Below, piece after piece: positions 1-3,000 of a stretch of 48,944 bases of DNA. Within the stretch, counting starts at the first letter, position 1. Each line of letters starts with the position of its first letter. This DNA is from a virus (taxonomy: Duplodnaviria > Heunggongvirae > Uroviricota > Caudoviricetes): IMG/VR virus record IMGVR_UViG_2718217715_000009, one strand, 5' to 3'. A program made the position numbers.

Positions 1-3000
1 TCAGAAGTGACCGTCCAGGCGGTCACCGAACTCGATAATAAAGCGGCTCATTGCCATACGCCAGTCCCGCAGTGGCATCGTCCATTTCTGTGAAGCCGCC
101 TGGATTGCCAGCCACACGACCTTTTTCACTGAGTCATCCGTCGGGAACACCTTGCGTTTTTTGATGGCATGCCGGATTACGCTGTTCAGCGACTCGATGG
201 CGTTGGTTGTGTAGATGACTAGACTGGCCCCCTGAATCTCCAGACAACCAGTATCACTTAAATAAGTGATAGTCTTAATACTAGTTTTTAGACTAGTCAT
301 TGGAGAACAGATGATTGATGTCTTAGGGCCGGAGAAACGCAGACGGCGTACCACACAGGAAAAGATCGCAATTGTTCAGCAGAGCTTTGAACCGGGGATG
401 ACGGTCTCCCTCGTTGCCCGGCAACATGGTGTAGCAGCCAGCCAGTTATTTCTCTGGCGTAAGCAATACTAGGAAGGAAGTCTTACTGCTGTCGCCGCCG
501 GAGAACAGGTTGTTCCTGCCTCTGAACTTGCTGCCGCCATGAAGCAGATTAAAGAACTCCAGCGCCTGCTCGGCAAGAAAACGATGGAAAATGAACTCCT
601 CAAAGAAGCCGTTGAATATGGACGGGCAAAAAAGTGGATAGCGCACGCGCCCTTATTGCCCGGGGATGGGGAGTAAGCTTAGTCAGCCGTTGTCTCCGGG
701 TGTCGCGTGCGCAGTTGTACGTCATTCTCAGACGAACCGATGACTGGATGGATGGCCGCCGCAGTCGTCACACTGATGATACGGATGTGCTTCTCCGTAT
801 ACACCATGTTATCGGAGAGCTGCCCACGTATGGTTATCGTCGGGTATGGGCGCTGCTTCGCAGACAGGCAGAACTTGATGGTATGCCTGCGATCAATGCC
901 AAACGTGTTTACCGGATCATGCGCCAGAATGCGCTGTTGCTTGAGCGAAAACCTACTGTACCGCCATCGAAACGGGCACATACAGGCAGAGTGGCCGTGA
1001 AAGAAAGCAATCAGCGATGGTGCTCTGACGGGTTCGAGTTCTGCTGTGATAACGGAGAGAGACTGCGTGTCACGTTCGCGCTGGACTGCTGTGATCGTGA
1101 GGCACTGCACTGGGCGGTGACTACCGGCGGCTTCAACAGTGAAACAGTACAGGACGTCATGCTGGGAGCGGTGGAACGCCGCTTCGGCAACGATCTTCCG
1201 TCGTCTCCAGTGGAGTGGCTGACGGATAATGGTTCATGCTACCGGGCTAATGAAACACGCCAGTTCGCCCGGATGTTGGGACTTGAACCGAAGAACACGG
1301 CGGTGCGGAGTCCGGAGAGTAACGGAATAGCAGAGAACTTCGTGAAAACGATAAAGCGTGACTACATCAGTATCATGCCCAAACCAGACGGGTTAACGGC
1401 AGCAAAGAACCTTGCAGAGGCGTTCGAGCATTATAACGAATGGCATCCGCATAGTGCGCTGGGTTATCGCTCGCCACGGGAATATCTGCGGCAGCGGGCT
1501 TGTAATGGGTTAAGTGATAACAGATGTCTGGAAATATAGGGGCAAATCCAGATGGATTTATCGTAATAAAGACAACAGCCAAATAATGAAAAACATAAAA
1601 TTTTATCTGCATGGCAAAGAGATACCAGCAGAAAGAATATTAGATACACCAGAGTGGAAAGACTACCGTCCAAAATACTCCGGTTCCACATATAAATATT
1701 CTTAATGATAGCAAAAAATATATTTTCGATATAATCAATGTTATGATTAAAGAGTATTTCATCAGGGCAGGTAAAAACAGAGTAAATCAGCAAAAGAAGC
1801 TGATCTTCAGCGATACTGACACTAACTGACGGTTTAAGCGGTCGTATGAAGCAGCAGCTTTCCGACGGACTGCCATGCGGATCGTTTACCTTTTGGGCTA
1901 TTCCGCCCGTCATCAAGCGGCTCACGAGTACTGAGTTTATCAGGATGATATTGCTGACAATGGTAATTCGTTGACCGATGTGTACTTCACTATATATCGG
2001 TCAACACCGTACTGCCGTGCAACATCTCCAAGATGTAGCATCGTTTTTACCAGAGGAGGCAGGACATAGATTGTAAAAAAACTATTTCGATGCATTTACC
2101 ATTGAGATATTTTCCTTCATACCAAAAGTTCTATCAATTATCGCAAGTGGTTCAACAGGTGCGGTCTTATCTATAACCCAACCACTCTCTGTAACACTTC
2201 CTCGTGTGATATATTTTGCCTTTACTTTAACAACTATTAGATAATGCTCACGACTAAACCGATCAGCAACGCTAAGATCCGATGTGTATTCAGGCAATAT
2301 TCTTCCAATACGTACCTGCTGTTGTGCCATATATTCATCTGGTGCTTTTACATTTGGATTTGAATCAGGAAGCCCTCCAGCAGTTTTATATTCAACGATA
2401 TTTTCAGCTTGAATACCGGTTGTGCCGCGACACAATATGATGTCTGAATCGGACAGTTCTATGTGCCCCTCCTTAATTTTCGAATAAATTTGTTTAATAC
2501 TATGTTCTGGAGTTGGTACTATTTCAGAAGATAAAGCAGGCAACGTGTCTTCAAGCACCGGAGAATCATCGTATATATCCAACAAATCCTCATCATACCC
2601 AATATCTCCTTCTCTTAACTGAGAATACGGTTTATCTATGTATCTAATAACTCCCCCACCATGAAGACCTTCTGATTTATAAAATGTACCATCAGCGTCA
2701 CGAAAGAAATAAACATTAACCTGTTTGTTATTTATAGAATACCTACCTGAATATAATTCCGAATTTGGCTCCTTAGTTAAATCTACTGATTCCCCCTTGT
2801 AGACTATTTTATTTGGTGTCTCTGAAGATATGGGGTTAAAGGATTCTATATATCTATAAAAACCACCGCCAACTTTCTCATAATACCCATACTTAGAAGA
2901 GTTAAGATCTACTGCACTATATCTATTCCCCCCACGATCCTGTTTCATTTCTAATATTTTAGATTGTTTTTCGTTATATATAAAGTCATTACCATCAATT

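Follow-up and report, generated by a model that had tools for sequence, protein, structure and literature searches.

IS remnants at the effector-cargo end of a prophage of E. coli O157:H7 and a probable IS2-associated deletion

The left end of the window (the whole 48,944-nucleotide stretch of DNA analyzed here) is nonfunctional IS debris at the effector-cargo end of an OI-50/CP-933N-type prophage of E. coli O157:H7. The history that we favor, and that we regard as probable, is that IS2 entered an IS256-family transposase gene, that an IS2-associated deletion then brought the right end of the element to codon 403 of an espK gene, and that IS2 was later lost repeatedly. All components are of known families (IS2, IS256-family/IS1414-like, IS629-like, espK/gogB, and espN/DUF4765), and each one of the fragments is already marked as a pseudogene in RefSeq. 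The O island OI-50 has been studied well, and its effectors EspK, EspN, and NleL are known; beyond annotation, the locus matters little. The only mildly new point is that a single site seems to keep an IS2-associated deletion together with two products of IS2 loss across serotypes.

Prophage setting, left flank, and the IS2 copy

Many complete genomes of E. coli O157:H7 and O145:H28 match positions 1..2600 of the window at 100% identity. In EDL933, the corresponding copy forms the effector-cargo end of a prophage adjoining potB, with the gene order potB, espK, a 91-aa ORF, an nleB fragment, a "transposase" fragment, IS2, a "GogB" fragment, espN, and nleL, and between the transposase fragment and the phage integrase, the window and EDL933 are collinear. 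Two segments of the window, 12127..14280 and 44171..47128, are missing from the EDL933 prophage copy. The first falls in an intact 1,080-aa ORF (12221..15463, minus strand), where EDL933 has a truncated tape-measure gene, and these extra segments and the intact ORF thus indicate that the prophage copy in the window is less decayed than that of EDL933. The region discussed here is bounded on the right by espN (2082..5483, minus strand), which encodes an intact 1,133-aa type III effector that matches Pfam DUF4765 over its full length and bears the name espN in RefSeq. In some carriers this gene is inactivated: IS1 splits the gene of SMN152SH1 (L016 3245..5744), and that of O157:H7 strain 3-5-1 is frameshifted (L003, 3563 onward).

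The first 219 nucleotides of the window (1..219, minus strand) are the 3' remnant of an IS256-family, IS1414-related transposase gene, comprising 72 codons and the stop codon. The earlier note had recognized here the C terminus of such a transposase, ending at the left end of IS2, and this reading is borne out by a match to Pfam Transposase_mut PF00872 (E = 3e-8, profile positions 332-377 of 379) and by identity at 219 of 219 positions to the 3' end of the intact 403-aa genes of strains DEF2 and 2013C-4465 (L008 and L009). Identity to IS1414 is 88-92%, and RefSeq labels the stretch a "transposase" pseudogene. At the site occupied by IS2 in the window, the intact IS256-family copies read ...GTGTAGATGAC followed by TTTGCGG. 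The left flank is therefore native right up to the IS2 end, through position 219, and the placement of IS2 within the IS256-family transposase gene stands as first proposed.

A complete IS256-family element is not present, as only the 3' 219 bp of the gene and a 34-bp terminus survive (253 bp of ~1.3 kb). With the intact IS1414-related elements of DEF2 and 2013C-4465, the locus shares all 219 positions of the kept 3' end and the same 34-bp terminus; it differs from them in retaining only these 253 bp. The terminus (GACCCTGTACACGATTCTGTG...) lies just to the left of window position 1 (L001 5853..6000), ~1 bp from a 114-bp C-terminal fragment of nleB, and position 1 coincides exactly with the transposase stop codon. 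In 2013C-4465 (L009 2209..4509), an intact IS256-family copy lies between a dinI-like gene and nleG7, and hence the element recurs adjoining effector genes.

The IS2 copy itself (220..1550, plus strand), a member of the IS3 family, is 1,331 bp long and complete end to end, and it is a pseudogene copy. It aligns ungapped over its whole length with IS2A of E. coli K-12, with 7 mismatches in 1,331 bp (99.5% identity), and shares with it the terminal repeats (IRL TAGACTGG... and IRR ...GGCAAATCCA) and the layout of orfA (insC, 311..676) overlapping orfB (634..1539), the latter with rve, rve_3, and HTH_21 domains. It differs from K-12 IS2A in two respects. The first is a premature TAG codon in orfA (470..472, plus strand), arising from a C-to-T change at position 470 of a codon that reads CAG in K-12; RefSeq accordingly describes an "IS3-like element IS2 family transposase; internal stop," and with orfA broken the element does not qualify as autonomous. 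The second concerns the flanks. IS2 normally generates a flush 5-bp duplication, with a spacing of 5 bp described in PMC3299598, and K-12 IS2A, used as a control that confirms the ends of the element, shows a clean ATTAC duplication on its two sides, whereas the 5 bp flanking the copy in the window differ (left, ATGAC; right, GATGG).

The lack of a 5-bp duplication had been reported in the earlier note, and reinspection agrees for flush ends, although an offset direct repeat, AGATG, brackets IS2. Its left copy (213..217, plus strand) is native IS256-family sequence 2 bp from IRL, and its right copy (1550..1554, plus strand) is composed of the terminal A of IS2 and the GATG of the adjoining espK remnant, as seen in the junction alignment. 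In O145:H28 strain RM12581 (L002 6651..7960), a 1,310-bp IS629 is nested in the same IS2 at the position corresponding to window 648..650, with a 3-bp CGC duplication. This nested IS629 is present in several O145 genomes, and the surrounding IS2 is otherwise identical to that of the window.

The right flank and the undamaged layout

To the right of IS2 lies the 3' remnant of a gogB-like effector gene, espK(B) (1551..1705, plus strand; 51 codons and the stop codon), with similarity to espK running on to 1714. The remnant corresponds without a break to codons 403-453 of the intact espK in strain 10153 and thus falls far short of the full length of ~453 codons. RefSeq labels 1550..1705 a "type III secretion protein GogB" pseudogene; what bears this label is the end of a second espK allele. 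A resident espK, espK(A), is located 2 kb beyond the left end of the window, and 1551..1714 is 95.7% identical to its 3' end. That the remnant is a duplicate of the resident gene was ruled out, as the two are different alleles (95.7% identical over the remnant and ~92% over the gene, comparing the full-length O157 espK(A) with espK(B) of strain 10153). Since the resident espK is a different allele, the locus is a fusion of two cargo cassettes.

The undamaged form of one of these cassettes is found in strain 10153, where an intact espK (453 aa; L010 3794..5155) lies beside ssrA and is followed by a 376-bp spacer and then by convergent espN (L010 5532..8933) and nleL. Window positions 1551..2081 are collinear with and 99.6% identical to the espK 3' end and spacer of this strain, and espN and nleL have the same convergent arrangement; unlike the window, strain 10153 has a complete espK, no IS256-family remnant, and no IS2. 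The spacer is present at ≥99% identity in 481 genomes, and subtraction of the ~299 with IS2 and the 59 with IS2-free junctions leaves ~123 with the undamaged layout. A distant search for other contexts of the spacer (1706..2081) returned it only beside espN, apart from weak IS3-family similarity. The comparison between strains that the earlier note had recommended thus recovers an ancestral espK-spacer-espN-nleL layout, and its picture of a scrambled border does not hold for the right side, since 1551..2081 is collinear with the undamaged layout in strain 10153 and ~120 other genomes.

The 300 bp upstream of espK (L001 3718..4017) are ~99% identical between the O157 potB prophage and the strain 10153 ssrA prophage, and the espK coding sequences of the same two prophages are only 87-96% identical per 100-bp window. 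This pattern suggests a recombination boundary near the espK start.

From ~1700 to 2081, three relics follow in a row, namely, the espK tail, an espN-like patch, and an IS3-family remnant, of which the first (1551..1705, with similarity to 1714) and the last had been overlooked before. The patch (1713..1777, plus strand) is inverted relative to espN and matches 4346..4282 at 86% over 65 nt (E = 1.6e-16), and its peptide matches EspN residues 380-401 at 18 of 22 aa. Alignment against the reverse complement of espN therefore upholds the nucleotide similarity and the opposite orientation claimed earlier for a piece spanning 1700..1830 but reduces its extent to these 65 nt, or 22 aa, and a longer paralogue fragment is not supported. 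A search for its source gene with a degenerate-codon DNA pattern, run on one genome for each species, yielded 0 matches, and a 41-aa protein search returned only two short ORFs identical to the query, at least one of them from E. coli.

The IS3-family remnant (1816..2059, minus strand) is decayed and IS629/IS1203-like. It is made up of two blocks, of which 1816..1887 matches nt 687-758 of IS629 and 1901..2059 matches nt 363-534, with an internal deletion between them; identity is 72-75% (E = 7e-20 and 4e-10) when compared with the IS629 nested in the RM12581 copy (L002), and the distant search also matched IS3/IS1203 transposase genes. Because the undamaged spacer is kept in strain 10153, the patch, the IS629-like remnant, and the inverted repeat within it predate IS2.

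Junction states and the order of events

The junction of the window, GTGTAGATGAC[IS2]GATGGATTT (W), is found in 299 complete genomes, all at ≥99% identity, and those sampled carriers that name a serotype are O157:H7 or O145. IS2 is multicopy, and such repeats are classic sites of misassembly. That W is an assembly or sequencing artefact, with a misjoin at the repeated IS2, is nevertheless effectively refuted, as these 299 independently completed genomes share the IS256/IS2 junction at ≥99% identity and the 2.6 kb of the window are matched over ≥80% of their length in 298 genomes; we give this explanation virtually no credence.

Another 59 genomes have IS2-free junctions of two types, GTAGATGGATTT (E1) and GTAGATGATGGATTT (E2), both lying exactly at the IS2 boundaries. 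E1 (GTGTAGATGGATTT) occurs in 12 genomes, including O157 strains 3-5-1, 272, and 08-3918, O145 strains RM12761 and RM13516, and C325, 2015C-4498, and SMN152SH1, and E2 (GTGTAGATGATGGATTT) occurs in 47, comprising O111 strains, several records without a stated serotype, and OkiPb01689. OkiPb01689 at first appeared to have a third junction length, but its junction is E2, and the difference comes from a 2-bp deletion elsewhere. E1 lacks the bases AC, as fits a join at AGATG (213..217 and 1550..1554), and in the alignment of the window with L003 and L005, removal of the DNA between the two AGATG copies reproduces the IS2-free allele E1. E2 fits a join at GA (217..218 and 1551..1552). To judge from these sequences, both look like microhomology excision products.

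The flanks carry further information. The IS2-free O157 strain 3-5-1 is identical to EDL933 in its flank SNPs, and the IS2-free O145 strain RM12761 is identical to the IS2-bearing O145 strain RM12581. Such sharing of flank SNPs within a serotype fits separate losses of IS2 in O157 and O145. The IS2 of RM12581 is identical to that of the window apart from the nested IS629, which speaks for a single origin of the IS2 allele. The E1 carriers C325, 2015C-4498, and SMN152SH1 have private SNPs.

In the order of events that we favor, the starting material, visible directly by comparison between genomes, was one cassette with espK(B), the 376-bp spacer, and convergent espN-nleL, the spacer already holding the patch and the IS629-like remnant with its hairpin, and a second cassette (espK(A), the 91-aa ORF, and nleB) that ended in the IS256-family element. 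The junction sequences suggest that IS2 then inserted in the IS256-family transposase gene after ...GATGAC, for which the expected duplication is ATGAC, and that an IS2-associated deletion subsequently removed the 5' two-thirds of the IS256-family element, the intervening DNA, and the first 402 codons of espK(B). This deletion could have been driven by transposase from the right end of IS2 or could have occurred by recombination with a second IS2 in espK(B), and either route would leave IS2 with unmatched flanks. This IS2 copy then acquired the nonsense mutation in orfA, which is seen directly in the comparison with K-12. Finally, as the junctions imply, IS2 would have been lost in several lineages at short repeats, AGATG...AGATG giving GTAGATGGATTT (E1) and GA...GA giving GTAGATGATGGATTT (E2, O111).

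An IS2-associated deletion was already suggested in the earlier note, and it is the best account of the missing duplication and of a native left flank facing a foreign right flank (espK from codon 403 onward). The scar would thus show two effector cassettes fused by an IS2-associated deletion, and the junction probably does not predate IS2. The predicted intermediate junctions read ...AAATCCA-ATGAC-TTTGCGGATATC... and ...GAATTACGATGG-TAGACTGGCC..., and a combined junction probe for the two intermediates, IS2-ATGAC followed by the rest of the IS256-family element or espK(B)::IS2, detected none among complete E. coli genomes. Three further considerations weigh against this order. As W was recorded in O157:H7 and O145 only and E1 occurs in several backgrounds, it needs at least 5-6 independent losses of IS2; the presence of AGATG on both sides of IS2 has to be put down to chance, with a likelihood of a few percent; and with orfA broken, transposase-dependent excision would need transposase in trans. 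IS3-family transposases are reported to act mainly in cis.

The distribution, in which the sampled IS2 carriers are all O157:H7 or O145 and E1 is spread over several further backgrounds, would require fewer events if the junction had come first. A deletion at a GATG microhomology, shared by ...GTAGATGAC in the IS256-family element and ...TTACGATGG in espK, would then have produced E1, and IS2 would later have inserted there in O157 and O145; the IS2-free O157 and O145 strains would be precise revertants, and the O111 junction E2 would be a 3-bp GAT slippage duplication. GATG does lie at the right place in both parent sequences, and E2 equals E1 plus a perfect tandem GAT. We nevertheless consider this course of events unlikely. 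IS2 would have had to hit the junction precisely and make a 4-bp rather than a 5-bp duplication, two added bases, AC, would by chance (1 in 16) have had to restore the native IS256-family sequence, and an unrelated change of 3 bp would have had to strike the very same position to give E2. Moreover, K-12 IS2A has a flush 5-bp duplication and no added bases, and such an insertion is not predicted by the mechanism described for IS2, in which the minicircle spacer is usually 1 bp and cleavage occurs at the element termini (PMC3299598). A separate proposal, that the AC between GATG and IRL is a retained IS2 minicircle spacer accompanied by a 4-bp duplication, was ruled out by the intact IS256-family copies, which read GATGAC.

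Deletion at an IS2 end followed by losses of the element, as we favor, has a counterpart in IS629 of EHEC. IS629-adjacent deletions in O157 are known, and we know of no tests of the IS-excision enhancer (IEE) of EHEC on IS2. IEE promotes the excision of elements of the IS3 family and, in vitro, joins their ends at microhomologies of 4-6 nt; the assay detected no 2-nt joint of the kind that E2 calls for (bioRxiv 10.1101/2023.06.07.543989). Both IS-adjacent deletions and microhomology excision of IS3-family elements have been described for EHEC (bioRxiv 10.1101/2023.06.07.543989). The locus resembles the IS629/IEE system in that a deletion ends at an IS terminus, the IS-free joins lie at 2-5-nt repeats beside the former ends, and the hosts are EHEC; it differs in that the element is IS2, itself defective. 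The comparison covers the junction sequences.

On whether the site is a record of the repeated, independent loss of a transposase-defective IS2 in EHEC at tiny repeats (AGATG and GA), we are evenly divided. If it is, the removal of IS2 would have taken place in trans or would not have needed the transposase of the element, with the IS-excision enhancer as a possible agent, and IS-free alleles in O111 and other serotypes could hide a past IS2-mediated deletion. The three states of the site (IS2, E1, and E2) could provide a simple lineage marker among O157, O145, and O111 strains and could illustrate, on a small scale, how an IS is lost at microhomologies in nature.

The inverted repeat downstream of espN

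The perfect 10-bp inverted repeat reported in the earlier note, GTTGACCGAT-N16-ATCGGTCAAC, is confirmed at 1970..2005, with arms at 1970 and 1996 and a 16-nt loop. It lies within the IS629-like remnant, 77-112 nt downstream of the espN stop codon, and is predicted to fold at -23.9 kcal/mol (z = -5.7) on the plus strand and at -17.5 kcal/mol (z = -3.2) on the espN strand. Across the window, a search for perfect inverted repeats of 10 nt whose loops are ≤30 nt returned 11 matches at ~7 places, compared with 1.4 in mononucleotide shuffles; the repeat at 1970..2005 is real but not unique. It maps to approximately nt 420-462 of IS629, as estimated from the alignment, adjoining an annotated pseudoknot. 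An Rfam scan of 1..2600 at E ≤ 1 gave no match anywhere, and an assignment of the hairpin to the IS3-family frameshift pseudoknot (Rfam ALIL) or to another known RNA was rejected on this result.

A stable hairpin at this distance past the espN stop codon raises the question of whether the region acts on espN expression, with IS2 or the hairpin serving, for example, as a structure that forms or stabilizes the 3' end of the convergent espN transcript and being retained on that account, and a terminator-like site on the minus strand at 1806..1784 could be taken in the same sense. We regard such a role as very improbable. The hairpin has no U tract after it and no Rfam match, and it lies in decayed IS629-like coding sequence; conservation is uninformative, as the carriers are all ~99.5% identical; and espN is intact both with and without IS2, which sits beyond the 3' end of the gene. 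Most likely, the locus does nothing now.

The terminator-like site, which lies ~280 nt past the espN stop codon, consists of a hairpin with a tail rich in T (AGATCAGCTTCTTTTGCTGATTT ACTCTGTTTT), and a terminator scan of 1500..2300 found 2 such sites compared with 0.5 expected. Within the loop region of the inverted repeat, position 1993 is T in the window and C in EDL933, in a stretch that otherwise barely varies.
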